Shown here one piece after another: positions 10,284-28,483 of a stretch of 64,000 nt of DNA. How positions within the stretch are numbered: the first letter of the stretch is position 1; the number at the start of each line of letters is the position of its first letter. The notes under the pieces are model-generated. The model was not told the DNA's origin. It did no database searches and was given only the letters and a program-made list of their open reading frames with translations. This stretch comes from Clostridia bacterium. Lineage in GTDB: Bacteria; Bacillota; Clostridia; Christensenellales; UBA1242. The DNA lies in NCBI GenBank assembly GCA_045655005.1, contig JAZOOJ010000001.1:19473-83472 (forward strand). Direction: 5' to 3'. The position numbers and the translations under genes are program-made.

Positions 10284-12458
10284 ATGATTTCAAAACAAGA
10301 GCAAAGAGCAGAATCAGATTATTTAAAGTCAGTACTGTATGTACTTGGAAAAGAGATTGAGAAGAAAGAGTCTGTCAAGGACCAAATTGAGGGTGACATA
10401 AAGGTTGCTATGAAATATATTTGGGAAGAGGGTAGCACCGAAGCTGATGACTTCATCAATATTCACGAAAGTATCCGTCAATTAAATCGTGGTGTTTTGC
10501 AAAGCGACAAGACATTGAAAGCCTATCGAAGAATGCTTTCAAGTGCTTATTTTGCAAGAATAGACTTTGATGACGGCACCGAAGTTCTTCCAATTTACTT
10601 AGGAATTGCAAGTTTAAAGGACGGCTCAGAGTTTTATGTTTATGACTGGCGTGCTCCAATTTGCAGTCCTTTTTATGACGCAGAAATTGGCGAAGCAAGT
10701 TACACACTTCCAGACGGCACAGAAATCAAAGGAAAGATTACATTGAAACGACAATATAAGGTTGAGGGCGACAAAATCTTAGAAATCTTTGACACCAACA
10801 CCCAAGTTGTAGACAATGTTTTAAGCAAACTTTTATCTACCACAGGCTCAACCAAAATGCGTAACATCGTTGCTACCATTCAAAAAGAGCAAAATAAAAT
10901 TATTCGTAAGCAAGATATTGATATTTTAGCCGTTCAAGGTCCAGCAGGCTCGGGTAAAACATCGGTTGCTTTGCACAGAATCGCATATTTACTTTATGCA
11001 GACAAAGAGAATTTAAACAAGTCTAATATGCTTATTTTGTCGCCAAATGAGGCGTTCAGCGATTACATAAGTGATGTTTTACCACAAATGGGTGAAGATA
11101 ATGTTTATCAAACTACCTTTTATGATTATGTTCAAGCGTACACTCGTGAATTTAAAATCAAAAGCAATATGAACGATATTTATGAAGAGTTGTTTGTAAA
11201 TCAAAAGACTCCATTTTTCAAATCAATTCGTTTTAAATTTTGGCCGGGATATATTAAACTACTTGAAAATTATTTAGAAGAAAGCAAATTTAAACTTTTG
11301 GGAATAGATGAAGACATTGTACTTGATGGCGAATTAATGGCGAATTGTGAGTTTTTAGCAAGGTACGTAGAAAATAACCTATCAAACTCAACAATGCGTA
11401 TTTACGAGCAAGCAAAACTTGTCAATGAGAAAATTTTGTCAATTGCTGGTGTAAGGCTTGTAAAAAATAGCAAGGGTAAAGCAAAACTTGAAAAAATGCT
11501 TAAAGCAAACTTGAAGAAAATTCGTGCAAAATCTATTTACACAGAATTATACGGCGATTTAAACAAATTTACTGAAAGAGTGCAAAATATCTATAACGAA
11601 CTTGGAACAATCAAGCAAGAGCGTCTTTCAATCAAAGATTTAAAAGAAATTTTTGACTATACCCAAGACCTTCTTAACAAAAACATTATTCCATACGAAG
11701 ATGTTATGGCATATTTATATATGAAAGAAAGAGTGACCGGCACTGTGACTCAAACTGGAATTAAGCAAGTTGTAATTGATGAGGCTCAAGATTATTCACT
11801 TGTACAATATAAATTGATTTCAAATGTCTTCAGAAATGCTCAAATTACAATACTTGGTGACTTAAACCAATCAATTATGCCGTTTGTTAATTATACGAAC
11901 TATGACAGTATTTTAAGTGTATTAAAAGAAGACCGTGTTCACAGTAAAATTGAAACACAATATTTAACAAAGACCTATCGAAGCACGGTGGAAATTAGCA
12001 CTTTTGCAAATAAGGTGATAGGTGCGGAAACCACACCAATTAAAAATCAACTTGACCGACATGGTGAAGAAGTTAAGGTCTTCCAAGATGTATCATCAGG
12101 TGATAAAAGTCTTATTGTAAAACACGCAAAGGAATTAAAGACCGAGGATAATACTGTCGCAATTATATTCAAAACAGCAAAAGAATGTAAAGACTTCCAA
12201 AAGTCGCTTGGAAGAACATCTGCTTCAAAGCAATTCACATTTATGGTGGACGGCAACAATGACTTTGTAAACAACAAAATTATGGTATTGCCACTTTATA
12301 TGGCTAAGGGATTGGAGTTTGATGTAGTATTAATTCCAAGAGCCAATGAAGATAATTACAACAAGAAGAACAAAAAATTGTTCTATGTTGCGTCAACTCG
12401 TGCAATGAACACTCTTCGCATTTATTACGACGAAGTGCCAAGTTCTTTAATATTATAG
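10284..12458 (+). CDS. helD: HelD-type UvrD-like helicase (RNA polymerase recycling factor)
   Basis: N-terminal HelD signature YFARIDF...IYLG...VYDWRAPICSPFY, Walker A GPAGSGKTS, DEAQDYS, TKTYRST and AKGLEFDVVL. Confidence 0.85.
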   Translation: MISKQEQRAESDYLKSVLYVLGKEIEKKESVKDQIEGDIKVAMKYIWEEGSTEADDFINIHESIRQLNRGVLQSDKTLKAYRRMLSSAYFARIDFDDGTEVLPIYLGIASLKDGSEFYVYDWRAPICSPFYDAEIGEASYTLPDGTEIKGKITLKRQYKVEGDKILEIFDTNTQVVDNVLSKLLSTTGSTKMRNIVATIQKEQNKIIRKQDIDILAVQGPAGSGKTSVALHRIAYLLYADKENLNKSNMLILSPNEAFSDYISDVLPQMGEDNVYQTTFYDYVQAYTREFKIKSNMNDIYEELFVNQKTPFFKSIRFKFWPGYIKLLENYLEESKFKLLGIDEDIVLDGELMANCEFLARYVENNLSNSTMRIYEQAKLVNEKILSIAGVRLVKNSKGKAKLEKMLKANLKKIRAKSIYTELYGDLNKFTERVQNIYNELGTIKQERLSIKDLKEIFDYTQDLLNKNIIPYEDVMAYLYMKERVTGTVTQTGIKQVVIDEAQDYSLVQYKLISNVFRNAQITILGDLNQSIMPFVNYTNYDSILSVLKEDRVHSKIETQYLTKTYRSTVEISTFANKVIGAETTPIKNQLDRHGEEVKVFQDVSSGDKSLIVKHAKELKTEDNTVAIIFKTAKECKDFQKSLGRTSASKQFTFMVDGNNDFVNNKIMVLPLYMAKGLEFDVVLIPRANEDNYNKKNKKLFYVASTRAMNTLRIYYDEVPSSLIL

Positions 12459-12469
12459 TATAGTATAAT

Positions 12470-12510
12470 AAAACACCTTATATGGTAAATCCATAAAAGG
12501 TGTTTTTCTT
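12470..12510. terminator. Bidirectional intrinsic terminator between convergent helD and the 12531..13088 gene
   Basis: aaaacaccttatatgg-taaat-ccataaaaggtgtttt. Confidence 0.8.
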
Positions 12511-12530
12511 GTTATAAAATATTATTCATG

Positions 12531-13088
12531 TTACTCAGCTTGCTCGTTGTGATTATTTAAGAGAAAATTTGTCAACTCGGTTTTACCTTGCTTTTTTGCT
12601 ATTTCAGCGAAGTCAGAAGCGGATATTGGTCCGAACTCAATAAAATATTGAAGTTCGCCCATAGTGTAATTATCATTAATATCAACCAACTTGATAAATT
12701 CTGTTGCAAGAAGGGTAATGTCTGCGTTTTTAACATATATTGCAAAGTTTGCAATGCTTCTTAGAAGTTGCGTATTGATTATTATTTTTTGAAGTCTTTG
12801 AATGTTTGCAAGTGGTACGTTTTCTGCAAAGTCAATGATAAGAGCAGGATCTCCGTCATTAATGATTATGTCTTCCAGCCTGTTAACTTGGCTTATTTCG
12901 GTAAGTCCAGAAGCAACAGAAGTAAGTGTTAAATATGATTGACTCATTATTGCATAGTCGACTAAAATTGCCTGTTCTTCTGGGTCGGTTAAACTTTCTG
13001 CTAGTTCTTTAAGTGCATTCCTTCTTTCTTTTGGTAATAATAGGGTTGCTTTAAAAATTTCAAATGCGATTTCATCTTTTCTTGACAT
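12531..13088 (-). CDS. Hypothetical helical-repeat-like protein (185 aa), divergent from the first giant gene
   Basis: ggagta RBS. Recurrent LVDYAIM / IIDFAEN / IANFAIY segments suggest short alpha-helical repeats. No family recognised. Confidence 0.6.
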   Translation of the reverse strand: MSRKDEIAFEIFKATLLLPKERRNALKELAESLTDPEEQAILVDYAIMSQSYLTLTSVASGLTEISQVNRLEDIIINDGDPALIIDFAENVPLANIQRLQKIIINTQLLRSIANFAIYVKNADITLLATEFIKLVDINDNYTMGELQYFIEFGPISASDFAEIAKKQGKTELTNFLLNNHNEQAE

Positions 13089-13195
13089 AAATATACTCCT
13101 TATGCGGAATTATAGCACAGAGATGTTAATAATTCAAGAGTTTTTAATAAGTAATAAATATCTATAATTGTTAGTTGGCTAGTTTTTTTAATTAA

Positions 13196-13230
13196 CCCCC
13201 CTTGAAAATGTAAATAATATATGATATAAT
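13196..13230 (+). promoter_or_regulatory. Promoter P1 of giant gene 1: C6 tract + TTGAAA-17-TGaTATAAT
   Basis: cccccc at 13196-13201, TTGAAA at 13202-13207, TG at 13222-13223 and TATAAT at 13225-13230. Nearly identical to 17241-17274. Confidence 0.75.
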
Positions 13231-13290
13231 GACACAAAATGTGAAAATTGATGGAATTCCTTTTGAATTCGCAATTTTTTAGGGGGATAT

Positions 13291-16200
13291 ATGTATTTAG
13301 AAAACATTGAAAAAGGCGCAAGAGAGTTTGTAAAGGGTATAAAAGACGCAAAGATTTTGCATTTGAGAGACAGTGAGGTTGTTCATCTTTTTAACTCGTC
13401 TGTTATTCCGGTTTTTTCAAATGGTGCAAAACTTGACAGGATAAGTGAAAAGGTATTAAAGGACGGCTCAAAGTATGAAGCAGTGCGTCCATATTTGGTA
13501 TGCTACAATAAAGCATTAGGGTGTAAAGTTTTATATCCAATGACCGCAAGCCAAACCGAAGAAACAATCAGAGAACATAAGCGTTATCATTTTGTCGAAG
13601 TTCCAGAAGAAGTTTATTGCTTCATCGACAGTGCAGTTCCGGGAAACAGATTTCATCAAGAAACACATAGCGAAGACAGTATGTCAACAGTTAATGTTGA
13701 AAGGGGTATCCCAATTTTTGCAGAGTGTTTAGATTATGATGATTTATGTATTGTGCACGACTATGATAACTTTTCATTTTCGCAAAGGGCATTACCAGTT
13801 GCACAAAGTTTTATAAAAGACCTTTATGGAAGATACAGCGAAGCCACTTTTAAAGCGGTAACTAATGCAAATGAGAATGTGTTTGCACTTATAAAAAACA
13901 GCACGAATGAATACGATCACCAGCATTATCGCCCAGCGGTTGCCTATCTCGCTATGTTTTTGAACTGGTCGGACAGTGCAGTGAAAAATAATTGGTTCAG
14001 TGATGTCTCTGAAATTGAAAGAGTGAGGTCTTTAAGGGAAATAACTTTAAAAGCCTATGTAGATTATTTAAGGTATTCAAAATTAATATATCAATTTCGT
14101 GGACAAAATCCAAAAGCCTATCATGAATTTACAGAAGCAAAAACCTTTGCGAAAAGACGAGATAATGGAGCTATTATTCAAAGTGATGTGCAAGATTTCC
14201 TTGAGCATAACGCATTGCTTGAAAATGGGGCTTTTGACCAAATTAAAGATTTGATGAGATTAGAAGCGACTGTTGAAGAAGATATAGCTTTTGCGTCAAA
14301 AGCAATCTCAATGTTTATTCAAGACAGTAAAAGAACGATTGATATGTCTGTGTCAAGTTTAAATATAAATGCTATTCGAGGCTATAAAGCGATGGCACAT
14401 AATCAATACGACCCAAATGGACTAGAAAGGGTTAATAATGCTTTTGCAGGAGTTTGCAACTCAAAAATTAAGCAACTTGAAGACAAAAAAGCAAAAATTC
14501 GTAAAGAAAGAGAGGCAGAACTTGCAAGACGAAACGCAGAATCAAAGAAAAGACAAGAAGTCGTTCGTTCAAGAAGTGAAAGAGTGGCTGAAAATGTTAA
14601 AGAGGCGCTAAAAATTTATATTGAACACTATGCTGATGTTTTGTCTGAATGTGAAAAAGGTATTTTAATAAGACCAGAATATAAAAAAGTATCACAAGAG
14701 TTTATTAGACTTTTCACTTCGTATGACCCAAAATATTCAGAAGTTCGCGAATATATCCAAAACTCTGACAACAACCCAACACAAGCAAGAGTTTCGTCAG
14801 CGATATTAAATTTGTCTAAGTTCGTTGAAAATATAAGTGATGCGGTTGAAATAATTGACGACCAAATTTCAGCAAGAGCATTGCAAGACTATTTTTCAGG
14901 AGAAAGCAAAACTGTTGAAGGCGAAAACGACAGGCAAACAGTAAATGCTTTAGAATTAATGAGGCTTGTGCACAGTGAATTTACAAGAGCTTTTAAGGTT
15001 AACGGAACTAAAAAACTGACAAACGCACAAATGCAAGAAGTTGCAGATAAACTTATTGAAAAGGCGATGAGAAATAAAGATAAATTCTCAGACCTTGACA
15101 TTGGTAAAGATTCAAGAGCCAGAACGGTTTACTTGGACGGTGCTTTGGAAGTTCTAGACAATGAATTATATGTTTTCCAACTTTGTGCAATATGTAAGCT
15201 TCATCAAGAGGCCTTAAAATTTGTAAAGGCGGTAAGATTTGCACATATCTCATTGCAAATGACAAGAAATGCAATAAGTGGATATTTTAAAGACGGATTT
15301 GAAGATGCCGAACAAATGATTATTGGTAATGTCGGTGGTCTTGAAGAGTTAATAGCACAAAAAGAGAAAGAAATTGAGGATATTTTAAAAGATAGGTCGG
15401 TTGATGTTACAGAAACAGCAAAGCGAATGAAAGAAATCGCTGACAGAGAATGTGAAATTTGTGCAAGAGAGCAAAACAATTTGCTTAAAATTCGAGAGTA
15501 TTTAGAAAATATAAAAAGAAACAAGGCTGAATACAACGAATATTATAAAGAGATAATTGAATCAATTCCAAAATTTGTAAAAACCGAGAAAGAACAACGT
15601 GGAATAGGCGATGACTTTGGAGTGTTTGATGGTCATGGATTGGTGGTTACAGTTAAAACTGCCGGTGTTGATACATTCAGTAATGAGACAACTGATGAAC
15701 TGACAGAAGATAAACCATTAACAGACGAAGAATTGTTGGATACGATGTTTATACATGGATTGATTAATCCTGCAGTATACAGCAAGATGTTAGTGACTAA
15801 AATTAAGTCGTCAAAGTCACTTAAAGAATTATTGGCGAATTTATCAGAAGTTAACACAAAATGTGATGTGTCTTGCGATGAGTTGTTGCAAGATTACACA
15901 TATATTTTAAAGACATATGGTCAATTACTGGACTCTGTAAAAGCCATTAAACAGCATTCAGTTGATTCATATGAGGCACGAATGAAATATGCCGAAAACT
16001 TTAATCCTGTATGGGATGAAGTGGTTGATGGAAAGCCAATCCCAATGCTTTCAGATGATGCTGTTCAAAGGTTAAGAGAGGTATTTAAACTTGCAATTAA
16101 AGATCGTGCAAAAATTGATGAACAAATGTCAGACAATTTTTTGGAACAGTTAGTATATGGAATTTTAGCACACATACAAGATATCCCATTAAGAAGTAAT

Positions 16201-17184
16201 AACCCAAACGAAAAAATTGAACAACGCTTTAATTATGACTCATTAGTTAAGGGTTCGGAAAATGTAGAAGGTGTGTCATATGCTGTAAACTTGAAAGAAT
16301 ATAAAGCGGATTTAGAAACAGAGTTAAATGTGATTCAATCTATTAAACCTACCAAGTTGTTTTTGGAACATTTTGATAATTATTATGCTGTTAGTGGTCT
16401 TTCATTTTTATCACTTCCTCTTATTTACGAACTACAGCATGAATATTTGTTAACCTCAATTGAAGAAGGTCGCTTAAATGGTGTATATGGTGGAGATTAC
16501 AGACGGACAATGTTAAAAGCTATGGAGTTGAATAAACTAGTAGCAATTGCTTATGACGCCCTTAAATCGTTCGGTGGTGTAGATTGCTATGATTGTGTTT
16601 ACGATTATTTAGTTGAAGCTTTACAAAGGGCTAAAAGTTTATCAGAATATGGAAAAGTTAAATTTTTGTCACCTGGTCGTGTAAGTCTAGGTAATGCTTC
16701 AGCCAGTCATAACTATGAAGCACACTATGCTGAATGGGTTAAGAGGGTGCATATGATTGAAAACGGCAGACTTCAAGAAGGCAGATATATTACAACAGAG
16801 GGCAGAGATGTGATTGCTGAAAAAGCAAGATTCACATTGCCAAATGCTTCTGATTTTGGGTCGTATACAAAAATTGGAACTCTTTCTCAGATTCAAGATA
16901 TATTAGGGGGGAAAGGGACAATCCAGCCACCAGCAAAAGCAACCATTAGTGATGTTGAAAGTTTAAAAACTGGAGACCCAAGAATTGATGAAGTTTTGGA
17001 CGAAATGGTGGCGGAAGGATTTGAAGTTAACGAGCAATTTATTTCTGCGTTTAAAGATGCTACGGCAATAATTGGAATGCTTGGTGGTGGAGATGGCTCA
17101 AACATTGCTGACGCCTCTAAATTTTTGGACAGCATTTCGCTGAAGAATCTTTTCGGAAAACATGAATCTGGCGAAGATGACTAA
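13291..17184 (+). CDS. Giant hypothetical protein, long form A (1297 aa): N-module + charged linker + shared C-module of about 770 aa
   Basis: Uninterrupted 3.9 kb ORF with aggggga RBS. Paralogous along its whole length to the 17346 gene, and over its C-terminal two thirds to the 21035 and 23397 genes. No known domain recognised. Confidence 0.85.
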   Translation: MYLENIEKGAREFVKGIKDAKILHLRDSEVVHLFNSSVIPVFSNGAKLDRISEKVLKDGSKYEAVRPYLVCYNKALGCKVLYPMTASQTEETIREHKRYHFVEVPEEVYCFIDSAVPGNRFHQETHSEDSMSTVNVERGIPIFAECLDYDDLCIVHDYDNFSFSQRALPVAQSFIKDLYGRYSEATFKAVTNANENVFALIKNSTNEYDHQHYRPAVAYLAMFLNWSDSAVKNNWFSDVSEIERVRSLREITLKAYVDYLRYSKLIYQFRGQNPKAYHEFTEAKTFAKRRDNGAIIQSDVQDFLEHNALLENGAFDQIKDLMRLEATVEEDIAFASKAISMFIQDSKRTIDMSVSSLNINAIRGYKAMAHNQYDPNGLERVNNAFAGVCNSKIKQLEDKKAKIRKEREAELARRNAESKKRQEVVRSRSERVAENVKEALKIYIEHYADVLSECEKGILIRPEYKKVSQEFIRLFTSYDPKYSEVREYIQNSDNNPTQARVSSAILNLSKFVENISDAVEIIDDQISARALQDYFSGESKTVEGENDRQTVNALELMRLVHSEFTRAFKVNGTKKLTNAQMQEVADKLIEKAMRNKDKFSDLDIGKDSRARTVYLDGALEVLDNELYVFQLCAICKLHQEALKFVKAVRFAHISLQMTRNAISGYFKDGFEDAEQMIIGNVGGLEELIAQKEKEIEDILKDRSVDVTETAKRMKEIADRECEICAREQNNLLKIREYLENIKRNKAEYNEYYKEIIESIPKFVKTEKEQRGIGDDFGVFDGHGLVVTVKTAGVDTFSNETTDELTEDKPLTDEELLDTMFIHGLINPAVYSKMLVTKIKSSKSLKELLANLSEVNTKCDVSCDELLQDYTYILKTYGQLLDSVKAIKQHSVDSYEARMKYAENFNPVWDEVVDGKPIPMLSDDAVQRLREVFKLAIKDRAKIDEQMSDNFLEQLVYGILAHIQDIPLRSNNPNEKIEQRFNYDSLVKGSENVEGVSYAVNLKEYKADLETELNVIQSIKPTKLFLEHFDNYYAVSGLSFLSLPLIYELQHEYLLTSIEEGRLNGVYGGDYRRTMLKAMELNKLVAIAYDALKSFGGVDCYDCVYDYLVEALQRAKSLSEYGKVKFLSPGRVSLGNASASHNYEAHYAEWVKRVHMIENGRLQEGRYITTEGRDVIAEKARFTLPNASDFGSYTKIGTLSQIQDILGGKGTIQPPAKATISDVESLKTGDPRIDEVLDEMVAEGFEVNEQFISAFKDATAIIGMLGGGDGSNIADASKFLDSISLKNLFGKHESGEDD

Positions 17185-17206
17185 ATTAATTGAATAAAAA
17201 CAACAG

Positions 17207-17236
17207 AATTGACGGTTTTAAAGACCGTCAATTTTT
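17207..17236 (+). terminator. Intrinsic terminator separating giant gene 1 from promoter P2
   Basis: aattgacggt-tttaaag-accgtcaatt followed by ttttt. Confidence 0.8.
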
Positions 17237-17240
17237 CTTA

Positions 17241-17274
17241 CCCCCTTGAAATTATATATTATATATGATATAAT
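17241..17274 (+). promoter_or_regulatory. Promoter P2 of giant genes 2-4: C5 tract + TTGAAA-17-TGaTATAAT
   Basis: ccccc at 17241-17245, TTGAAA at 17246-17251, TG at 17266-17267 and TATAAT at 17269-17274. Confidence 0.75.
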
Positions 17275-17345
17275 ACAGCAAATAGAAAAGGGACTTAGTA
17301 ATAAAGGGAATGCTGGGTCGCCGGAATGAGAATATCGGGGGATTT

Positions 17346-20300
17346 ATGAATAAAGAACAGTTTATGCATTATGCTGGTCAACTTTACAGAGATTTAAGAA
17401 ATACAAAAATAGTATTTTTATCAGAAGACTCTAAACTTTTAGAAGCAATCAATGGTGGAGATATCCCAGCATTTGAAAACGGCGGAGAACTTCAAGTAAG
17501 GACTGAAAAAGTTGACTCAAGCACAGGAAAGAAAAGTGCGGTAATAAGACCGTACTTGATTTGCTATAACTCAATATTAAAGTGTAATGTTCTTTATGTA
17601 ATGACTGGAAGTCGAACAATTGAGCAGATTAAAAATAAAAGATATTATGACTCAGTTATAACACCAGAATGTCTTTATGATTATATCGACAGCGTGTTGA
17701 CAGATGGCAGACTTGATATGTCAACTCACACAAAGGCAAACTTGTCAACGGTGTCGCTTACTCGAGCAATACCAATTCCGAATGAAATTACCAAGAAACT
17801 TGAGGCTGAATCGATGGTTGATTGGGCTAATGGAGACTTCGATTCAAGGGACATTCCAATTTTGCGTGAATTTATGTCGCATTTTTACGGAAAGGTTGAC
17901 GAAAGTTTTATTACAAGGGCGACTAAGTCGGGCAGAGCACAAGAATGGTTCTTAGATAAAGAAGATTTTGTGTCGTGGCAAAAACTTTCAAGACCATCGG
18001 CAATTTACACAGCAATGTTTATAAATTTTGCATTAAGCGAGATTGAAAACCCAAAGGCTACCAACCCTTTAAAATTAAGACAATTAAAGAATATGGTTGA
18101 GGGTGCAACAACCGCCTATCTTGATTATTTAAGATTTATGAATGAAGTAGATGGTTATAAACGACTTCACTCAAAGGTCTATCGTGCATTTTTTGAAGCA
18201 AAATACAATATTGCCATAACATTTAGGTCTAACAAGTACGAAGATGCCTACCATGAAGTTATGAGCAGTTTAGAATGTCCTGACAGCGTGCGTGGAAAAG
18301 TAAGAGAGCTTTTAATTCGTGAAAGACAAATTGATAAAAATCTAAGTCTTGCGGTAAATGTTGCAATTTCTTATTTTAATGGTGAATCAAGGCGTGTAAA
18401 TATTTCAGAAGTGCAAATGAATGAAAGTTTATTTCACTCTTTCACAAAAATGGCTGGGGCTTTTTCAGACAGCAAATACAAAGCACTTGTTGAGTCTTGG
18501 AACAAGAAAATTAATGCAAGGTTTGACGAACAAATTGCACAACTTGAGGAAAGAATTCAAATTGCAAAACAAGAAAAAGAACGAGAAGAATATCGCCGAA
18601 GACGAGAAAAAGAAGAACAGCTAAGAAAGTCAACTACAATAACAGAAAGAGCAAAAAGAGCTGTGGAAAATGCATTGGATTTATATCATCAATTTTATAA
18701 GGTTCCATTTGCAAATCTTTTGTCGGGACAGTTGTATAATACCGAAACAAAGCATCAAATTTCGGATTTTGTAAAATTATTTACAACCTATGCTGACGGT
18801 TCTGGATTAAGTATGAAAAAAGTTTTAAGAGATATTGATGAAAGAGATGCACAAAATTATCTCTCAGACAGAATTTTAGCGATGTCAGAATTTACCTCAG
18901 TTATGGATTCGTCAAGAATTGCAATTGAAGAGAGTGATAAAGCCAGAAAGATGCAGGCTTATATAAAGAGCCGTTCAAATCGTATTGGTGGAGATGAAGG
19001 CGAGGCTGTTGAACGAGCAATAGAGTTAATGACTTTAATCCATGAAGAATATGAAAGAGCAAGGAAGTTAAAACACTCAAATAATGAAGACAATCCGGTT
19101 GCGAACATTATAAAAAAAGTTTTAAAAGATGAAACTCGCTATTCAATTGTAGACTTCTCATCGGGCTCAAGTGCAAAGGCTTATTTTGACGATATGCTTT
19201 TGGTTCATCAAGTGCAAGAGAATGTTGCAAATGTATCAGAAATCTTTTCAATGCGTGTTGAAGCTCTTTGGGCAATGCAAGACTTAAAAGTAGAGTTTGA
19301 GCAATTATTGGAAGCATATGAAATTTTACGTGGTAAGATTACAGGAGCGTTTGAAGAAGAGATTAAAGCGGGTTTGCAAAAGAAGTCTTTAGATGAATAT
19401 TTGTCTGTATGCGAAAAAGAAATCTTACAAATTTTACAAAATGGGAATATAGATTTAGACGCTACAATTGATGAGATAAGAGCATATAAAAAACGTCAAT
19501 CTGCAATGATTGAAAAAGAGATTGAGGCAGTTGAATCTTTCGTTATAGTTTGTGCAAAGTCGGTTATGGAATATGGCGAGTATTTAAAGAGATGGGAAGA
19601 GTCAAATTCTGGCATATCAAGAATGATTTTAACAGAGAAAAGGAATTTGGGATTTGCTCCAGAAGAAGGTGTCTCAGAAGGTCACTTTGTTGGCAAAATT
19701 CATAGAGTTATTGTTGATACTGAAACTGGTGAAAAAAGTGAAGAGAGCGAAAGTGAAGAACACGCAATAACAGACCTGCATGTAATTGAAGAGATATTCA
19801 GTAGAACTATTCCAAACCCTGTAGAGATTGAATCTAAGGTTAAAGATAGAATGAAGGGCTTGACAAATATATTTGAATTAATTGATGAATTGTCGTCACT
19901 TGAAAGGAATGCAAAAGCGTGGACTACAAACTTAAACGAAAGTTATGATGCCGTAAGGAATTTATATATTTCAATGCTTGAATATCGCAAGAAGATAAAA
20001 GAGTCAGGAGAAAGATTTTTAGCGAGTCAAAGATGTTTTGTTGAAGAATTTAAGCCAATGTCAAGTTTTGATGGACATCAATTAATTCAACAAGAGAACA
20101 TTCCTGCTATGAAAGAGGCAATGTCAAGGGCTTTTGGTGAATACGAAGAAACAATCATTTCTTATTTTGAAGAATATTTGCCGAGTATGTTCATTGCGTG
20201 TATTATTGATTATTTTAATGCAATTGATACCAGAACAGACATCGCTCAACCTGCTTACGATTATGTTAACATCAATCGTATTACTGGGAAACAGGTGCTA

Positions 20301-21008
20301 TACACAATAGACGCTAAAAAACAAATCAATGTTTTAGATGCAATAAACGGATATTACAGAAATAGTATAATCATTGAAGATGCAATACAAAATGCTTACC
20401 TAAGAGATATTGTGTCAATGCAAGAGTTTAGGGAAATTAATCACGCAGTATTGCCAATCTTAGAATATGAGTTTATGTTCCAAGCGTTAAAGATTATGTC
20501 AGAAGTGTTATTTGCAACAACGGTTGATGATGCATTGGTGACAAAACTTCAAAGAGATGATGTGTTGGATATTACAAGGATGTTATGTGGTCAAAGTGAA
20601 AGTGGATACACCTATTCAGATAGTTTATATGAATACTTAATTAAAAAACTACCAGAGTTTGATGAATATGTGCAAGTACGATTTACAAAGTTTATGGCAA
20701 ACTCGGCAATTGCGCAAGCGGGTTTTTCATTAACCAATCAATCAATGACAAAACTTTTACGCTTGGGGCAAGAAGCGTCTGAGGTCTATGACGGGTGTAA
20801 TGACAGAAATTGTGCTATAAGAGCATTTAAGTGGTATCATACTTGGCTTTCAAGATTACATAAACTTGATAGAGTAAGAGAAGAAAGAGATAAAGAGGTT
20901 ATTTTACAATTAGGAGACATTCAAAGAGATGTGGCAAGAGAAAAAAGAATTCTTTCAGGGGATACAACTCCTTTTGGTATATTCATCGAAATAACCGACG
21001 AAAATTAA
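17346..21008 (+). CDS. Giant hypothetical protein, long form B (1221 aa), paralog of 13291..17184
   Basis: Start moved to ATG 17346 (ggggga RBS, same geometry as gene 1). Its N-terminus aligns with gene 1 (IRPYLICYN..VLYVMTGS versus VRPYLVCYN..VLYPMTAS). Confidence 0.85.
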   Translation: MNKEQFMHYAGQLYRDLRNTKIVFLSEDSKLLEAINGGDIPAFENGGELQVRTEKVDSSTGKKSAVIRPYLICYNSILKCNVLYVMTGSRTIEQIKNKRYYDSVITPECLYDYIDSVLTDGRLDMSTHTKANLSTVSLTRAIPIPNEITKKLEAESMVDWANGDFDSRDIPILREFMSHFYGKVDESFITRATKSGRAQEWFLDKEDFVSWQKLSRPSAIYTAMFINFALSEIENPKATNPLKLRQLKNMVEGATTAYLDYLRFMNEVDGYKRLHSKVYRAFFEAKYNIAITFRSNKYEDAYHEVMSSLECPDSVRGKVRELLIRERQIDKNLSLAVNVAISYFNGESRRVNISEVQMNESLFHSFTKMAGAFSDSKYKALVESWNKKINARFDEQIAQLEERIQIAKQEKEREEYRRRREKEEQLRKSTTITERAKRAVENALDLYHQFYKVPFANLLSGQLYNTETKHQISDFVKLFTTYADGSGLSMKKVLRDIDERDAQNYLSDRILAMSEFTSVMDSSRIAIEESDKARKMQAYIKSRSNRIGGDEGEAVERAIELMTLIHEEYERARKLKHSNNEDNPVANIIKKVLKDETRYSIVDFSSGSSAKAYFDDMLLVHQVQENVANVSEIFSMRVEALWAMQDLKVEFEQLLEAYEILRGKITGAFEEEIKAGLQKKSLDEYLSVCEKEILQILQNGNIDLDATIDEIRAYKKRQSAMIEKEIEAVESFVIVCAKSVMEYGEYLKRWEESNSGISRMILTEKRNLGFAPEEGVSEGHFVGKIHRVIVDTETGEKSEESESEEHAITDLHVIEEIFSRTIPNPVEIESKVKDRMKGLTNIFELIDELSSLERNAKAWTTNLNESYDAVRNLYISMLEYRKKIKESGERFLASQRCFVEEFKPMSSFDGHQLIQQENIPAMKEAMSRAFGEYEETIISYFEEYLPSMFIACIIDYFNAIDTRTDIAQPAYDYVNINRITGKQVLYTIDAKKQINVLDAINGYYRNSIIIEDAIQNAYLRDIVSMQEFREINHAVLPILEYEFMFQALKIMSEVLFATTVDDALVTKLQRDDVLDITRMLCGQSESGYTYSDSLYEYLIKKLPEFDEYVQVRFTKFMANSAIAQAGFSLTNQSMTKLLRLGQEASEVYDGCNDRNCAIRAFKWYHTWLSRLHKLDRVREERDKEVILQLGDIQRDVAREKRILSGDTTPFGIFIEITDEN

Positions 21009-21034
21009 AATAAAAACAAAAGAGAATAAGATAT

Positions 21035-23356
21035 ATGGGAAATCAAGAAAATTTTAAAGAACATATTAAAAATGCGATAAGGCTTTATAACAGCGGTGGA
21101 CTATCACAGGTTTTTGCAAAAGTTGTAAACGGTGAATTAATATCTAATGGTAAAAATCAAAAGGCAGAAGAATTTTTAAATGCTTTTAAGCGTCGTACGA
21201 CAAGTGCTATTGAAAACTCGGGCGAATATACTTTTACCAATGAAGAAAGTAGTGAAAATATGACAATAAGTTATTCACTAACAGAAAGCGAGAATGTACT
21301 AATTTCTAGACTTAAAGAAATGTCTATAAATATACCAACTATTGAAAGTTTGGTTAGTACACTTTCTGAAAGTGAACTTGTAAAACAAGCGCAAGGATTT
21401 TTGTATGGTGGTACACCAATTGATGGTCAAAACAAAGAAGTCATTGAACAAAGTTTAAATATGCTTGCGTTAATTCATTCTGAGTATACAAAGTCTGCTG
21501 GTAAAAAGAAGTCACCAACCAGTGAAAGTGCCGTCCTTGAATCAATCATTAAAAAGGTTTTAAGACAAAGCGAAGATTTTAGTGCTATTGATTTTTCAAA
21601 GGATAGCCCACTAATACAATATTTAGATGAAATGGTAGCAGTTGCAAAAAGTCAAAGTGAGTTGGGTAAACACAAAGAAATGTTTGAATTTAGATGTGGT
21701 GCGGTTGATGTACTAAATGGATTAAGACAAGGCTTCGCTCAATATATCTTTGACAGAGAAAATATTGTTCATACAATCAACAGCAGAGATAATATTTTAT
21801 TTAAGGTTGACGAAGACCCATCAAAAACATTGGCTGAGATGATGGCAGATTGTGCTGATGCTGTTTTAGATTTGACTAAGAAAAATGGTGTCACAGTTAA
21901 AGATTTATTGACTCATCAAAGAAAACAAATTGCAGAAATGGAAAGTGCAAGAAGCAGTTTGCTTGCTGTTGATAATGGTATTGTAAGACTTCAAAACGCA
22001 AGAGATTCATACACAGAAAGGTATAATGGATTTTTAGAATTACTTCCACAAAGACTTAATGAAATCAGTGAAGCAAAAGGTCTTTCAAGTGTAGGTGGGC
22101 TTGTCGGCAGAGAAATTGAAGGGAATGCTTGTGATAAAATTCAAAATCCAGAAAGTGGTGAATGGGAAGTTGTTGGAAAGTCCGAAGAAGAAAAAATAAT
22201 AACCGATGAAGATGTTATAAGTACTTTATATAACAGGGTTGTTTTGCACGAAAGCACAATAATGTCTGGATATTTAAACAAACTTATCGGGTCAGAAGAT
22301 TCATCAGAAATTGAAAGAATTATTTCAGAATATGAGCAAAAATTTAAAGTTGCTGGAAGCCAACTTGAAGGAGATTTCTTAAAAGTTCTTCAAGTTTATT
22401 CGGACTTGCTCGACTATAAGATGCGAATAGTTAGAACTCCTTATGAAAGCAAAAGAGTGGTTGCAAGATATCTATCTGATTTTAATCCAATAATAAAGAA
22501 AACAGGAACGCCATATTTTGAGGGTGAACAACTTGAAAAAATTCGCACCGTTGGAAGAAAGGCGTGTATGGAAGCTCTTGACAGTCAAAAGAGATATTTC
22601 AACCATTTGCTTATCCCATTTTCACTTGGAATAATGGATTATATCGATGAAATGCCAGTAAGAGAAGTTGGTCAGCCAGTAGATGGATTAATTTCCGCTG
22701 AAGGTATTATGAAAGCAACAAAAACCTTTGATTTGCAATCACACGAAAAGTCAATTCACGATATATTAAAAGACAGTGATTTTGTAATTTCTTATTTACA
22801 AGCACCAAAGACAGCACAAAAAGACTTAATGGAAGTTTTATCTGACGAAAGAATTGAAACAAAGTTAAATGGTGTTGTTCCAATGCTTGCATTTGAGGTT
22901 GGTTATAGAGTTCTTGAAAATTGGTTGCAGTTAACTTATGGAATTGGAAAGAGTGATAAGACAAGTAAAAACCTAAGTGCGTATGACAAATTTATTAAAT
23001 TAGATACAATTTGTGGAAAGGCGTTCTATCAATCTGATGCATTTTATTATCATCTTGCAAGCACAATGCCAAGGGTAGAGTTGTATAAAAAGCAAGAACA
23101 AGCAAGACTTCGTGAGCAATCATTTAGAAGAATGGGTGAAAGAGCATTGAAAGATAAACGAATTACAGACTTGCTTGATGCCTTTGATGCTTACTATATC
23201 GGTTGGCTACACAATTTGCACGTTATGGAGCAAGACCGCATTGAAAAAGGTGAAGAACTTGCAGTTGCCAACAGAGATGTCGAAAGAGAAAATCGTACAA
23301 TTGCAAGAGGCGAAACACATTTACGCAGGTTTATAGGCACCGACGAAGCAGAATAG
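21035..23356 (+). CDS. Large hypothetical protein, short form C (773 aa), homologous to the C-module of the long forms
   Basis: Lies 26 nt after the preceding stop, so it looks operonic. Shared anchors include MLALIHSEYTKS, FSAIDFSKDS, IITDEDVISTLY, SDFNP and GWLHNLH. Confidence 0.85.
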   Translation: MGNQENFKEHIKNAIRLYNSGGLSQVFAKVVNGELISNGKNQKAEEFLNAFKRRTTSAIENSGEYTFTNEESSENMTISYSLTESENVLISRLKEMSINIPTIESLVSTLSESELVKQAQGFLYGGTPIDGQNKEVIEQSLNMLALIHSEYTKSAGKKKSPTSESAVLESIIKKVLRQSEDFSAIDFSKDSPLIQYLDEMVAVAKSQSELGKHKEMFEFRCGAVDVLNGLRQGFAQYIFDRENIVHTINSRDNILFKVDEDPSKTLAEMMADCADAVLDLTKKNGVTVKDLLTHQRKQIAEMESARSSLLAVDNGIVRLQNARDSYTERYNGFLELLPQRLNEISEAKGLSSVGGLVGREIEGNACDKIQNPESGEWEVVGKSEEEKIITDEDVISTLYNRVVLHESTIMSGYLNKLIGSEDSSEIERIISEYEQKFKVAGSQLEGDFLKVLQVYSDLLDYKMRIVRTPYESKRVVARYLSDFNPIIKKTGTPYFEGEQLEKIRTVGRKACMEALDSQKRYFNHLLIPFSLGIMDYIDEMPVREVGQPVDGLISAEGIMKATKTFDLQSHEKSIHDILKDSDFVISYLQAPKTAQKDLMEVLSDERIETKLNGVVPMLAFEVGYRVLENWLQLTYGIGKSDKTSKNLSAYDKFIKLDTICGKAFYQSDAFYYHLASTMPRVELYKKQEQARLREQSFRRMGERALKDKRITDLLDAFDAYYIGWLHNLHVMEQDRIEKGEELAVANRDVERENRTIARGETHLRRFIGTDEAE

Positions 23357-23396
23357 ATTTTGGAAATATAAAATTGTAAAAATAATAGGGGAAATA

Positions 23397-25712
23397 ATGG
23401 CAAAACAAGATATAAAACAAGATGTGACAAATCAAATAAAAAAAGTGATTAAAGAAGCCTTAGGATTTTATAATGGCTTTTATGGAGAGATTGTTCATAA
23501 GATGAGAAATGGACAATTTTACACAAGTCTTGCAAGTGCAGATGATGTTAACAAGTTGTGCAACAGAATTGAACTTTACCACGGAGATGGTTTGGTTAAA
23601 AGTTATATGTCAGAAGGCGAAGTCGCAATTTACAATAAATTACAATTATTGGCAAGTGGCGGTTTTGATAAATCCTTAGTTGACGCTTATTCAGGGATTG
23701 GCAACAATGGTGCAAGCATACAACTTGAAAGAGCATTTTGTAATGGTTCTTTTAATGACTTTGAACTGCAATCTGGTGTAGAACTTTTAAAACTTATTGA
23801 CAACGAATTTTCAAGACAAGCCAAGTCTTTAAAATCTGGTGCGGTTACATCATCTGAAGTCGTTGGAACAATCATCGGCAAGGCATTAAAATCTCCAAGT
23901 CTTTATGTGAATGCAGATATGAACAAGTTGTTGCCATATCTACAAAGTTCTCTAACCGCAAGTGAGTGTAATCAATATATTTTTCAAATAAAAGATATTG
24001 TTGATAGGTATGAACTTGCTAAGACCTCAATGGCAGAAGTGTCTACTGAAAGCGACTTGGTGCAAGTTGAATTTTATTCATACGAACTTGAAATTGATAG
24101 AGATTTTAAAGAATATTTTCATAAGCACTTACCAAAAGATAAAATGGAAAAACTTGTAAAAGATTATGACAACTTTATTTTACAAGTCGTAACAAATAAC
24201 ATTAAAACAATCCCAGAAAGCCTAAAAGGCATTAGAATATCGGATAGGATTGTAACAGATGATTTGGTTGGAAGAAAAGGCTTGTCGCACGACGAAATAA
24301 TGCAAATTATAAAATCTACAAAGGCTGAAATTGTAAAAAGATGTAAGGCTGAAGTCGAGTTGATGGACAGTGTGGCAAAGAAACTTAAAAGAGTGATGGA
24401 GATGGTGTCAGACTATCGAATTAAAGATAGAGAGTCGCAATCTGTGATAGACCAAATTGTTGAATCCAGAAACAACAACGGACAGAACTTCTTTCGTGGC
24501 AGAATTGATGCGAATGTCAAGACCCTTCATCTTGATGACCTAAGCGGAGAAACAACTGAAGTTGAAGGCGAAAAAGAAATTAAAATGACCGACAACGACT
24601 TGATGAATATAATTAGGCACAAATTAATCAAACATTCAAGTGCAATGTTGTTTGTAATGAAAGAGCAAATGAAAGAAAGTACATCAATGAGTGAATTTGC
24701 ACAAGCAGTTGATATGGGCTACAATACTATTGAACTTTGGTTGGCAGAATTTGACGGGGATATTAAAAAGATAACCGATTTTTATGATACAATACTAGCA
24801 ACCGATTCTGCGATTAGTAACCTTGGTGTTGAGTTAAGAAATGCACTTTATGGTTTTATGGATAATTTTAATCCAAGAGGCAAAAAAAGTAGAATGGCAT
24901 ATCTTAGTGAAGAAGACTTAGCATCTTTGCGTGAATATGGAAAGAGGTCAATAGATTTTGAGATTAAAATAAGAGATGCTTATTACAAAGAAGCGTCAAG
25001 AATGTTTATGTGTGCTGTATTAAATTATTTTAATCAGTTGAAAATTGATGATATTTATTTTACACAAATTGAAGACCATTTTAATTTAAAGAAAATTTCT
25101 CAGGGAGTAACTATTTGTGACCTTTTGGATAAAGATGTTGAGTTACATCCTATGACGATATTTGAACAAGTAAATAAAACAATCAAAGCATTAAAAGACC
25201 CAAAGAATGCAAGATTAGATATATCAACCATTCTATCAAATGAGGACATAGTAAGGGGTATTCAATCAATTCTTCCTTTCTTAAATTATGAACTTTCTTA
25301 TGGTACTTTAAATAATATGATACAATCAGAGACGGCAATAAAAGAAAAAGACTTAGATTCTGCTAGGCAGATGGCTTTGTTTATTTCGGACTCAATGGAA
25401 AGTATGGAAGTTTCAAACGTTATTAACGCAGATTTAAATGGTTTATTTACAACAAGTGCTTTCTTTGAATATTTAGAGCAAAGGCTTGCAATGTATTATA
25501 GAACATTAACAAAAATAAAAAATGAACAGACAAGAAAACAAAAAATAGGACTTTATGTAGACCAATCTCTCTTTGAAATGATTTCAGATGCAGAAAGAAT
25601 GTATAACGAATGGGCAGAGCACCTAAAAAATTATCTAGAGAAGAAAGATAGTTTAGATGAGAATGAAGCGTCAATCGATGAATTACTAAAAGCACAAGAC
25701 GAACAAGAGTAA
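23397..25712 (+). CDS. Large hypothetical protein, short form D (771 aa), homologous to the C-module of the long forms
   Basis: aggggaa RBS, 40 nt after the preceding stop. Shared anchors include LLKLIDNEFSRQ, KMTDNDLMNIIR, DNFNP and EWAEHLK. Confidence 0.85.
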   Translation: MAKQDIKQDVTNQIKKVIKEALGFYNGFYGEIVHKMRNGQFYTSLASADDVNKLCNRIELYHGDGLVKSYMSEGEVAIYNKLQLLASGGFDKSLVDAYSGIGNNGASIQLERAFCNGSFNDFELQSGVELLKLIDNEFSRQAKSLKSGAVTSSEVVGTIIGKALKSPSLYVNADMNKLLPYLQSSLTASECNQYIFQIKDIVDRYELAKTSMAEVSTESDLVQVEFYSYELEIDRDFKEYFHKHLPKDKMEKLVKDYDNFILQVVTNNIKTIPESLKGIRISDRIVTDDLVGRKGLSHDEIMQIIKSTKAEIVKRCKAEVELMDSVAKKLKRVMEMVSDYRIKDRESQSVIDQIVESRNNNGQNFFRGRIDANVKTLHLDDLSGETTEVEGEKEIKMTDNDLMNIIRHKLIKHSSAMLFVMKEQMKESTSMSEFAQAVDMGYNTIELWLAEFDGDIKKITDFYDTILATDSAISNLGVELRNALYGFMDNFNPRGKKSRMAYLSEEDLASLREYGKRSIDFEIKIRDAYYKEASRMFMCAVLNYFNQLKIDDIYFTQIEDHFNLKKISQGVTICDLLDKDVELHPMTIFEQVNKTIKALKDPKNARLDISTILSNEDIVRGIQSILPFLNYELSYGTLNNMIQSETAIKEKDLDSARQMALFISDSMESMEVSNVINADLNGLFTTSAFFEYLEQRLAMYYRTLTKIKNEQTRKQKIGLYVDQSLFEMISDAERMYNEWAEHLKNYLEKKDSLDENEASIDELLKAQDEQE

Positions 25713-25726
25713 CGATAATAACAAAT

Positions 25727-25762
25727 AAAAAAACCAACTCTAACTTTAGGGCTGGTTTTTTT
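25727..25762 (+). terminator. Intrinsic terminator ending the giant-gene operon
   Basis: aaaaaaaccaactct...agggctggttttttt imperfect stem with a T-tract. Confidence 0.6.
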
Positions 25763-25837
25763 AATGATAAAATAATGAATGGCAAAAAATACAATTTTGT
25801 ATTGAACTTGGATTTGTAGTTGTGCTATAATAAAAAT

Positions 25838-27187
25838 ATGGAAGAAATGAATTTATTTAACATTAATCAATCTAATGCATTTAAACCGTTGGCTGAGCGA
25901 ATGCGACCAAGGACACTCGAAGAATTTTGCGGGCAAGACCATATTTTGGGCAAGGGTAAGTTATTGTATCGTTTGGTGGCAAGTGGTGCGGTGTCAAGTT
26001 GTATATTCTTTGGACCGCCGGGGACGGGGAAAACTACGCTTGCTAATATTATTGCAAATGGAAAGAATGCAAACTTTGTAAAACTTAATGCGGTGTCAAG
26101 TGGTGTTGCTGATGCAAAGGCTGTAATTGAACAAGCAAAAAAAGACCAAGAAATGTATGGTAAAAGGACCTACTTATTATTAGACGAATGTCACAGATGG
26201 AGCAAGGCTCAAAGTGACTGTGTGCTTGGGGCAATAGAACAAGGTTATATAACTTTTATTGGAAGCACAACTGAAAATCCTTTTTACAGTATGACAAGAG
26301 CTATTGTGTCAAGATGTAGGGTTTTTGAGTTTAAGCCACTTAAATCTGAGCATATAAAGAAAGCAATCGAAAAGGCTTTAAAAGATGAAGAAAATGGGCT
26401 TGGGAATTATAAAATTGTAATGGCAGACGGTGCGGTTGATTCGTTGGTTGTGGCGTCTGGTGGGGATTTGAGGTTTGCACTCAACTCTCTTGAACTGGCT
26501 GTAAAAAGTACCGATGGGAATGAAGTGGGCGAGGTAACCATAACTCCGGAGATTATTACCGAATGCACAGGTGGAAAACTTCTAAGTGTTGACGAGGATA
26601 TTTATTATGATATGCTCTCGGCTTTTGGGAAGTCGTTGCGAGGTTCTGACCCAGATGGTGCGGTCTATTGGGCTTTTCGAATGATAGAGTCTGGTATTGA
26701 CCCTCAGGTTATTATTAGACGACTTATTGCTCATACTTCTGAAGATGTTGGACTTGCAAATTCAAATGCTCTTGTTGTGGCGGTGTCTGCCTTGACGGCG
26801 TACCAAAATTTAGGAAGTCCAGAGGGATTAATTCCAATGACTCACGCAATTATAAATACGGCAACAAGCCCAAAAAGTAATGCAGTTGTAGTTGCAAGAG
26901 ATAGTGCAATAGAGGCCGTAAAAACCAGTCTTTTAGATGCTGTGCCAGACCACTTGAAAAACTATAATTTTTTAAATGAAAAGCGTGCAAAGTATAAATA
27001 TCCGCATGATTTTGGTGGGTATGTTTCTCAACAATATCTTCCAGACAGTATAAAGGATAAGAAATTCTATCAACCAACCGAAAATGGAAATGAAAAGAAA
27101 ATAAAAGAGTTTATGAGTGTGGTAAATGAGTTAGGGCAAGCAGAAAAAAGTAAAGCAAAGAAATCAACTTTCAATCATGGAAATTAA
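25838..27187 (+). CDS. rarA: Replication-associated recombination protein A (AAA+ ATPase RarA/MgsA)
   Basis: PLAERMRPRTLEEFCGQ, Walker A GPPGTGKTTLA and Walker B LLDECHRWSK. The start is uncertain (ATG 25838 or 25847). The track start at 25820 overlaps a TGcTATAAT -10 element. Confidence 0.88.
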   Translation: MEEMNLFNINQSNAFKPLAERMRPRTLEEFCGQDHILGKGKLLYRLVASGAVSSCIFFGPPGTGKTTLANIIANGKNANFVKLNAVSSGVADAKAVIEQAKKDQEMYGKRTYLLLDECHRWSKAQSDCVLGAIEQGYITFIGSTTENPFYSMTRAIVSRCRVFEFKPLKSEHIKKAIEKALKDEENGLGNYKIVMADGAVDSLVVASGGDLRFALNSLELAVKSTDGNEVGEVTITPEIITECTGGKLLSVDEDIYYDMLSAFGKSLRGSDPDGAVYWAFRMIESGIDPQVIIRRLIAHTSEDVGLANSNALVVAVSALTAYQNLGSPEGLIPMTHAIINTATSPKSNAVVVARDSAIEAVKTSLLDAVPDHLKNYNFLNEKRAKYKYPHDFGGYVSQQYLPDSIKDKKFYQPTENGNEKKIKEFMSVVNELGQAEKSKAKKSTFNHGN

Positions 27188-27210: not shown

Positions 27211-27245
27211 AAAAACCTCTCAGCACAAAGCTGAGAGGCTTTTTT
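27211..27245. terminator. Bidirectional intrinsic terminator
   Basis: aaaaacctctcagc-acaaa-gctgagaggcttttt between convergent genes. Confidence 0.85.
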
Positions 27246-28035
27246 AAATATTAAATTCTTCGTTTTGAGTGTTTTTAGCCTTTGATGTTCCAGTTATTGG
27301 CATTTTTGATACATTTAATTGTTGTACCGTTAATGTTTGTTTTGGTTGCTCGAAGATTAAGCTTGGTGATTGAAGAACTTTTTCATCGTTTGATGATACT
27401 CTTAATGTACTTGTATACATACATAATTCACCATTAGAATCGTTTGCACATTGATGATAGGTTACATCGTAATATACAACATTGTTATCATTTTGTGGGT
27501 TACGAATACTCTTAATAGAAGGTTTGCCAACAGCAGATGGCACACTTTCTGTTACAACATTGTCAACATTAACAACTTCAATAATTTTTGCGTCTTTAAT
27601 TATTTCAAGTATTTCACTTAAAACTTCTTCGTCGTATTTCTTACCATCTTTTGGATTTTCTAACATAGTGTTAAATGCCTTATTGAAATCATCGTCACCG
27701 AGTTCATAGGCAACTTTAACAGCGTCTATTTGTTTACCATTGTTAACGGCTTCGCCCTTGACAACCATCGATTTCCCTGTTTCACTTTTGTTATCGCTTG
27801 GATTTAATTCAATTCCGGATAATTCAAATTCATTAACATTAATTTGTTCGCTAATGGTTGTTTCAAAGTTGTTAATCAAATCCTTGTATCCAATCCTGTC
27901 TGCAATTCCATCACGAATGGCAAACACGGAACAAACACCAGTTGCTGTTAGCAATCCTATAACGCATACACCCAAAATTGCATCAATTATACTTCTTTTG
28001 TTATCATTGTACATATCATCGTCATCATTGTACAT
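27244..28035 (-). CDS. Membrane-anchored hypothetical protein
   Basis: Start set at ATG 28035 (ggaggt RBS). The N-terminus MYNDDDDMYNDN is followed by one TM helix (AILGVCVIGLLTATGVCSVFAI) and a hydrophilic domain. Confidence 0.6.
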   Translation of the reverse strand: MYNDDDDMYNDNKRSIIDAILGVCVIGLLTATGVCSVFAIRDGIADRIGYKDLINNFETTISEQINVNEFELSGIELNPSDNKSETGKSMVVKGEAVNNGKQIDAVKVAYELGDDDFNKAFNTMLENPKDGKKYDEEVLSEILEIIKDAKIIEVVNVDNVVTESVPSAVGKPSIKSIRNPQNDNNVVYYDVTYHQCANDSNGELCMYTSTLRVSSNDEKVLQSPSLIFEQPKQTLTVQQLNVSKMPITGTSKAKNTQNEEFNI

Positions 28036-28483
28036 ATCACACCTCCGTAAATTTATGGTACCATAAGCAATGTTTAAAGTCAACTAATTATTGTGAGTTA
28101 TTTTTAACACAATTTACCGATTTATAAAGATATTCTAAGTGTAGGGTAGAATAAAGAAAAATCAACCCTCAATTACGGGGACCAACACAAAATGTGATAA
28201 TTTGCAAATTTGAGCAAAGTTGTGGCAGAAAATTAATTTTATAAAACCATAACAAAAATTTAGTAAATTACTAAATGATTTCATTTGTTTTCACTAAAAA
28301 GACTTTACAAAAGAATTTAAAGTATTGTATAATGAATTTACAAATAGTTTAGGCAAATATTATTGATTGATATTTGCTTTTTACCTATCAAAAAAATAAA
28401 TATATCGATTGCTATTGTTATTTTTTAATAACAATCTTGATAAACGCTTTAAAACAAAAATTTTTAGCGAAGGGGATAAATTT

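Follow-up and report, generated by a model that had tools for sequence, protein, structure and literature searches.

A rare family of giant proteins encoded next to rarA in uncultured gut Clostridia and its putative role as a cytoplasmic scaffold

In this work we describe a cluster of four giant genes on the chromosome of a Clostridia bacterium (Christensenellales, UBA1242). The DNA analysed, hereafter called the window, is a stretch of 64,000 nucleotides of contig JAZOOJ010000001.1 (GenBank assembly GCA_045655005.1, positions 19,473 to 83,472 of the forward strand). The genes, here named G1 to G4, are located between helD and rarA, where they occupy 12.4 kb of core chromosome. A preliminary description, made from the sequence alone, had presented them as highly diverged paralogues with no recognisable domain, and it served as the starting point of the present computational analysis. 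The four genes are members of a family that is very rare and that has so far been met exclusively in uncultured Clostridia of the gut, and we tentatively propose that their products form a scaffold tied to RarA.

All four genes lie on the plus strand, and they encode two long and two short proteins. G1 (13291-17184) codes for a long form of 1297 aa and G2 (17346-21008) for one of 1220 aa, which is identical to the database protein P0001; the short forms G3 (21035-23356) and G4 (23397-25712) comprise 773 and 771 aa, respectively. These open reading frames (ORFs) have the positions given in the preliminary description, from which only the length of the G2 product (1221 aa) had to be amended. The G2 start is the ATG at 17346, with the ribosome-binding site (RBS) GGGGGAT in front of it, and a longer ORF from 17310 is unsupported. 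Contrary to what had been stated, the four genes do not fill the whole space between helD and rarA, as this space also contains a 185-aa ORF on the minus strand (12531-13088), divergent from G1 and of uncertain membership in the cluster.

The sequence indicates that G1 is monocistronic and that G2, G3 and G4 form one operon, as had been suggested, because two promoters (13198-13230 and 17242-17274) and two stable terminator hairpins (17205-17239 and 25726-25762) delimit these units, and the gaps between G2 and G3 and between G3 and G4 are only 26 and 40 nt long. Both terminators end in a U-run. The one after G1 has a stem of 14 bp (-15.5 kcal/mol, z -5.8), and the hairpin after G4 is about equally stable (-15.3 kcal/mol, z -5.9). 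The promoters of G1 and G2, which are paralogues of each other, had been called perfect-consensus; they are in fact strong, near-consensus sigma-A promoters, with TTGAAA-17-TATAAT, an extended TG and CCCC in front (the extended -10 region of the G1 promoter is contained in TATGATATAAT). This composite pattern is found at just two sites in the window, before G1 and before G2, with 0 expected by chance. Its core, CTTGAAA-N13-TATGATATAAT, and the RBS GGGGGAT are invariant in five upstream regions of G1- and G2-type genes from three genomes, and locus L018 carries the same promoter.

Homology among the four ORFs, which had been proposed by eye, was established by pairwise BLASTP searches against a database of the four sequences. 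All six pairs are collinear. The best match is that of G1 with G2 (E 6e-71, 24% identity, 1258 aa aligned), followed by G2-G3 (2e-32), G1-G3 (5e-23), G3-G4 (3e-19), G2-G4 (3e-11) and G1-G4 (6e-8). G3 and G4 match residues ~430-1230 of the long forms, such that the short forms correspond to the C-terminal ~770 aa of the long ones, as described before. In a MAFFT alignment of seven sequences every anchor motif listed in the preliminary description fell in the same columns, and 17 columns were invariant, including the A..Y of the first helix, a TD motif and the Y..W of the last helix. The tail said to be unique to the first long protein was also recovered in this alignment, with a length of ~105 aa; it is absent from the G1-type orthologues, which are 1191-1198 aa long.

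The family goes back to one ancestral gene for a protein of ~1150-1330 aa, in which an N-module of ~400 aa, a K/E-rich linker and a C-module of ~770 aa follow one another. In G1 these parts extend over residues ~1-393, ~394-430 and ~430-1190, and the tail occupies residues ~1190-1297 (nucleotides ~16858-17181); G3 and G4 consist of the C-module only. No internal repeats were detected when six segments were compared using hhalign. AlphaFold2 models predict the N-module as an alpha/beta part followed by a helical bundle, and the C-module as almost all-helical. For the N-module of G2 (aa 1-433, alignment of eight sequences) the pLDDT was 61.5, with a low-confidence alpha/beta region at aa 1-215 (pLDDT 28-55) and confident long helices at aa 216-433. 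The G3 model (alignment of nine sequences, pLDDT 81, pTM 0.59) includes three long helices, each of ~60 aa, and directly before the invariant T390-D391 a beta hairpin at 362-388. The four proteins are acidic, with net charges from -23 to -41. A motif scan and a hydropathy analysis agreed with the earlier statement on missing signals and motifs: G1-G4 contain no Walker A ([AG]xxxxGK[ST]) or HExxH motif, no transmembrane-like segment (the maximum Kyte-Doolittle value of a 19-residue window is 1.29), no signal peptide, as judged from hydrophilic N-termini and hydropathy, and no LXG/WXG Pfam match.

The absence of a recognisable domain was borne out by all profile and structure searches. Pfam and NCBIfam gave no family for G1-G4, and PHROGs and PADLOC just scattered weak matches (E of at least 0.002) to unrelated families. 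When 26 family members were scanned individually against Pfam, no family recurred and none was common to more than two members. When the complete set of PDB sequences was searched with phmmer and with three profiles, nothing was found below E 0.006; the best profile matches, to DUF964 and a COP9 subunit, were rejected as chance. In Foldseek searches with the AlphaFold models, neither PDB nor BFVD gave a row with an E value under 0.04, and no TM-score exceeded 0.2. Relationships to SMC, vinculin or tape-measure proteins were rejected in view of the generic long-helix nature of these rows. We regard the protein family and the fold assignment as new, since no defining feature of a Pfam, NCBIfam, PHROG or PADLOC family, or of SMC-like, anti-phage defence, phage structural or secreted proteins, was found in G1-G4.

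Only 29 relatives were obtained when 1.84 billion cluster representatives were searched exhaustively with an HMMER profile. They originate from gut metagenomes, and all named ones are annotated as "hypothetical protein" from metagenome-assembled genomes of Clostridia or Christensenellales (one Christensenellales). Homologue searches queried by alignment returned only relatives of the first sequence of the alignment. A pattern scan of genome contigs with the G2 alignment found no relative, a result that is unreliable, since the assembly of L001 is in the collection (the rarA contig being L004) and the locus may be masked.

The relatives fall into three clades. Clade A contains the four types of the window, clade B single-copy genes for proteins of 1189-1330 aa and clade C single-copy genes for proteins of 1142-1145 aa. 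The long forms of clades A and B were matched by hhalign with a probability of 100% (E 3e-38, 897 columns), and the profile matches to clades B and C cover profile positions ~14-290, within the N-module. In a neighbour-joining tree of the C-module clade A is monophyletic (100% bootstrap) and is divided into four orthogroups, the G1 type (98%, G1 being grouped with P0007 and P0008), the G2 type (100%), the G3 type (85%) and the G4 type (100%). The G2 type is the most conserved, its orthologues P0002, P0003 and P0004 being 55%, 38% and 38% identical to G2. An orthologue of G3 in L003 is 44% identical, and those of G4 are P0011, the start of which is present in L003, and P0015, from L002 and L018 (23-25% identical). 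The fragments P0012 and P0013 closely resemble G4 and G1, respectively.

Since each of the four orthogroups includes genes from other genomes, the duplications and N-terminal truncations predate the species split and are old, not recent. According to the tree, one gene gave rise in the lineage of the window to G1 and G2, the two long types, and to G3 and G4, which lost the N-terminal part; all four were then inherited vertically, in agreement with the lineage-specific expansion proposed in the preliminary description. There is one copy in clades B and C, two in L001 (G1 and G2 types, then a lipoprotein-like gene), three in L018 (G1, G2 and G4 types) and four in the window. L003 and L021 carry the G2, G3 and G4 types and have kept the G2-G3-G4 operon. 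The L021 contig has a composite start (positions 1-330). Behind the promoter of rarA, 24 codons from the beginning of this gene (79% identity with the window) run into a stop; they are succeeded by the 3' part of a G1-type gene (corresponding to P0009 aa 1028-1088, E 1.6e-11) and then by the G2-type promoter. Either rarA and G1 once stood together here and a deletion left this scar, or the assembly is chimeric.

The giant proteins diverge several times faster than the products of the neighbouring genes. Between the window and L018 the products of pnuC, helD, rarA, GDPD and cmk are 76-91% identical, in contrast to 32% for G1, 38% for G2 and 25% for G4, and the same contrast was obtained against L001. 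At the distance of clades B and C the flanking genes are still 46-69% identical, whereas the giant proteins are at ~22-25%, near the level that unrelated long proteins would reach in a global alignment. By RarA as well as by G2, the three clade A genomes lie at about equal distances from one another, as would be expected of orthologues that all evolve at a high rate. Even the closest pair for which DNA was available is only 55% identical at the protein level, with saturated synonymous sites. Expression of the giant genes is likely, and as their promoter and RBS have remained invariant while the proteins diverged to 25-38% identity, selection for strong expression may be assumed. The clade C genes are preceded by a promoter of the form TTGACA-17-TGnTATAAT.

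The upstream neighbour helD (10284-12458, plus strand), the gene for a motor that recycles RNA polymerase, matches the NCBIfam HelD_BACSU equivalog with 468.9 bits, the cut-off being 419, and its product is 87-90% identical to those of L001 and L018. Downstream, rarA with its own promoter spans 25802-27187 on the plus strand; it is recognised by Pfam MgsA_C (1.5e-56) and AAA domains, and is 88-91% identical to rarA of L002, L004 and L018. The link of the cluster with these two genes, for which the preliminary description had suggested a survey of related genomes, turned out to be general. A giant gene adjoins rarA in every locus that could be read through, and usually lies between rarA and helD. 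The order pnuC-helD-G(n)-rarA-GDPD is common to the window and L018 (clade A) and to L017 and L019 (clade C). In clade B, the giant gene begins within or immediately at the stop codon of the gene upstream of it. In four of the five loci (L012/L013, L014, L015 and L016) this upstream gene is rarA; L012 continues past the giant gene with helD-pnuC. L020 has the order rarA-387aa-G-helD. The helD gene adjoins the giant gene in L012, L017, L018, L019 and L020, and rarA adjacency is kept in at least three local arrangements, a side switch included. The link is conserved over three deep clades and is not merely the position of the copy in the window. In more distant relatives (RarA 58-63% identical), rarA-helD-pnuC or rarA alone is found without a giant gene.

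The window (9017-27187), L017, L018 and L019 (pnuC-helD-G-rarA) show the mirror image of the order in L012 and L020 (rarA-(x)-G-helD-pnuC), although the genes keep their strand, a result that a single inversion cannot produce. In L005 and L006 the order is rarA-helD-pnuC, without a giant gene. The 387-aa ORF of L020 (2494-3657), whose start overlaps the end of rarA, contains a HELRH motif and has no recorded Pfam match. In L017 (clade C), a gene of 4443 aa with Flg_new domains was called from 18205-19429 onward, ~7 kb beyond the giant gene on its downstream side; it probably encodes a huge surface protein and looks unrelated to the giant family.

In the window the rarA promoter reads TTGAAC-18-TATAAT, and its -10 box ends 6 nt before the ATG at 25838. 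An extended -10 element (TGnTATAAT, or TATACT in L016) likewise ends 6-9 nt before the rarA ATG, without an RBS, in the window (25802-25840), L002, L004, L012, L014, L015 and L016. The rarA mRNA therefore looks leaderless in every genome seen, and the clade B giant gene would therefore be the second cistron of a leaderless operon.

The surrounding genes belong to the core chromosome, with lepA and hemW downstream, the syntenic flanks are 73-91% identical in relatives, and the GC content is uniform and matches that of the host. The family had no tblastn match in 50,697 phage records and none in IMG/VR or the plasmid collections; the best BFVD Foldseek row had an E value of 0.04 and a TM-score of 0.11, and no integrase or transposase was found among the annotated neighbours of the cluster. 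A mobile-element origin was rejected on these grounds, and the chromosomal nature of the cluster, as described before, was upheld.

The extreme divergence of the orthologues relative to their flanks and the variable copy number might reflect an arms race, in which case the giant genes would be a conflict system, either an anti-phage or anti-plasmid defence or a toxin-like module, as the preliminary description had also considered, placed in a variable slot flanked by conserved housekeeping genes and only incidentally close to rarA and helD. The ORF next to G1 would fit such an explanation. It has no family match in Pfam, NCBIfam, PHROGs or PADLOC, the 216-aa ORF in the matching position of L001 is unrelated to it, and L018 has no such ORF, so that in the comparison of these three loci this small-ORF position is a second hypervariable slot beside the cluster. 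The HELRH-motif ORF beside the giant gene of L020 could be counted likewise. However, PADLOC gave nothing significant, no defence, toxin or nuclease domain was found in the PADLOC, PHROG and Pfam scans, and there are no conserved catalytic residues. The fixed location and the vertically inherited orthogroups are unlike the patchy, horizontally transferred defence islands, and neither the host-like GC content, the negative phage, plasmid and IMG/VR searches nor the strict conservation of a strong promoter points to a conflict system. In addition, the clade B gene is putatively coupled in translation to a housekeeping gene, as suggested by the stop/start overlap. We regard a conflict system as unlikely.

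A different kind of alternative concerns the N-module, which could belong to a known superfamily of enzymes or of domains that bind nucleic acids, with too much divergence to be detected, the C-module being its regulatory or oligomerisation arm. It is indeed the best conserved part between clades, and the fold search was uninformative for its first 215 residues, the alpha/beta region modelled with low confidence. However, the only residues invariant across clades in this module are R, P, L, M, P, P, Y, N and Y, with no Asp, Glu, His, Cys, Ser or Lys among them, and neither a consistent weak Pfam match among the 26 members nor a PDB-sequence profile match was found. The short forms, moreover, are conserved although they lack the module entirely. 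A hidden domain of this kind is improbable. In the C-module only G, D and Y are invariant across clades. The small number of invariant residues in both modules, together with the absence of Walker A and HExxH motifs, suggests that the proteins are non-enzymatic.

We therefore favour, with a probability of roughly 35%, a putative abundant, non-enzymatic cytoplasmic scaffold which would be tied to RarA and possibly to HelD; a cytoplasmic scaffold was also one of the two ideas of the preliminary description. Long and short forms would join via their common C-module, and the N-module, as the part best conserved across clades, may serve as an adaptor. The assembly would act on the nucleoid with RarA, in the rescue of stalled forks, and possibly with HelD, in the release of RNA polymerase. 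A narrower version is doubtful; it takes the proteins as an accessory factor of the RarA/HelD machinery with a fold that has no solved counterpart, restricted to Christensenellales-like gut Clostridia, in which long and short subunits would form a hetero-oligomer, putatively a large helical platform that organises or recruits RarA at stalled forks or replication-transcription conflicts. A literature search found no description of such a RarA partner.

Several points weigh against this scaffold. Partners of the core replication machinery usually evolve slowly, whereas the giant proteins evolve very fast. The clade A RarA has a C-terminal tail ~15 aa longer, but no sequence feature of RarA was found that tracks the presence of the giant genes. 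The alpha/beta part of the N-module was modelled poorly, such that a known fold or active site is possible there, and the alignments used for modelling held only eight or nine sequences. Finally, rarA and helD already adjoin in relatives without giant genes, the linkage being compatible with inherited synteny from one insertion, and in the window a terminator lies between G4 and rarA, which carries a promoter of its own.

These last two points speak at the same time for abundant structural proteins unrelated to DNA, i.e. a cytoskeletal or polar scaffold or a non-classically exported component, whose position next to rarA would be an accident of one ancestral insertion. Inheritance from such an insertion explains most of the synteny, the giant genes and rarA of the window are separate transcription units, the promoters are strong, and the long helices, acidic composition and low constraint resemble those of coiled-coil-rich cytoskeletal proteins. 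An accident, however, does not readily account for an adjacency to rarA that survives at least three local gene orders, including the switch of sides, nor for the stop/start overlap in clade B, which points to co-expression, and there is no signal peptide or transmembrane segment for export. A structural role unrelated to DNA is thus not very likely, though it deserves some weight.

Among known systems, the SMC-like proteins MukB and JetC of Wadjet are, like the giant proteins, large, mostly helical and cytoplasmic, and their genes, too, have DNA-maintenance genes nearby. Chains of JetABC and MukBEF ranked high in the Foldseek output for the models, without reaching significance (E 0.1-1.1, TM at most 0.14), the best SMC-type rows being 9qe0_B (E 0.11, TM 0.07) and 8dk2_C (E 0.22, TM 0.11). 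In contrast to these proteins, G1-G4 have no Walker A/B ATPase head, SMC Pfam match, hinge or kleisin partner. The coiled-coil-rich cytoskeletal proteins Scy, FilP and crescentin are also long, helical, acidic, fast-evolving and lineage-specific, have no enzymatic motifs and are probably abundant. Instead of one continuous rod, the G3 model shows many helices of 10-60 aa, loops, a beta hairpin and a packed tertiary structure; the family also has a conserved alpha/beta N-module, and no sequence similarity to these proteins was found. Vinculin/talin-type rods share the successive bundles of long antiparallel helices, and full-length vinculin was the second Foldseek row; the match is not significant (E 0.27, TM 0.09), however, and these eukaryotic proteins have no homology to the giant family.

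RarA/MgsA/WRNIP1 proteins are among the most conserved genome-maintenance proteins, and their mechanism is poorly understood. Many members of the giant family end in short acidic tips (SGEDD, TDEN, DEAE, DEQE, SGDDE, GEDE), located in G1-G4 at 17170-17181, 20994-21005, 23342-23353 and 25698-25709 of the window, and about half of the 29 sequences have such a tip when it is defined by at least three acidic residues among the last eight. The terminal hydrophobic residues of the SSB tip are absent from them. Compared with the C-terminal tail of SSB, which is an already known partner of RarA/MgsA according to PMC6101539, the giant proteins are genetically tied to rarA and in many cases carry acidic tips (SGEDD, TDEN and DEQE, for example), these being, however, not universal in the family.

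If our proposal is correct, a dedicated, co-transcribed giant partner of RarA across a lineage of gut bacteria would offer a new route to the study of RarA. Although metagenomes contain many orphan families, few features of this one are ordinary: it is large and expanded, has a conserved promoter, evolves at an extreme rate and is tied to rarA. With 12.4 kb of core chromosome devoted to fast-evolving proteins that have strong conserved promoters and no match in sequence or structure, it illustrates biology that is invisible to current annotation. It is also a clean case of the growth of a gene family by duplication and N-terminal truncation within one operon.

The lineage as a whole is poorly annotated, as further sizeable ORFs without an NCBIfam match lie near the cluster, at 667-1296, 4109-4819, 4874-5548, 7119-8900 and 27244-28083 (minus strand) of the window, one of them coding for 593 aa. 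The window also contains a bacterial class A RNase P RNA at 3573-3969 (225.8 bits), and at 61595-62155 six tRNA genes are clustered (Pro, Met, Asp, Phe, Thr and Tyr).

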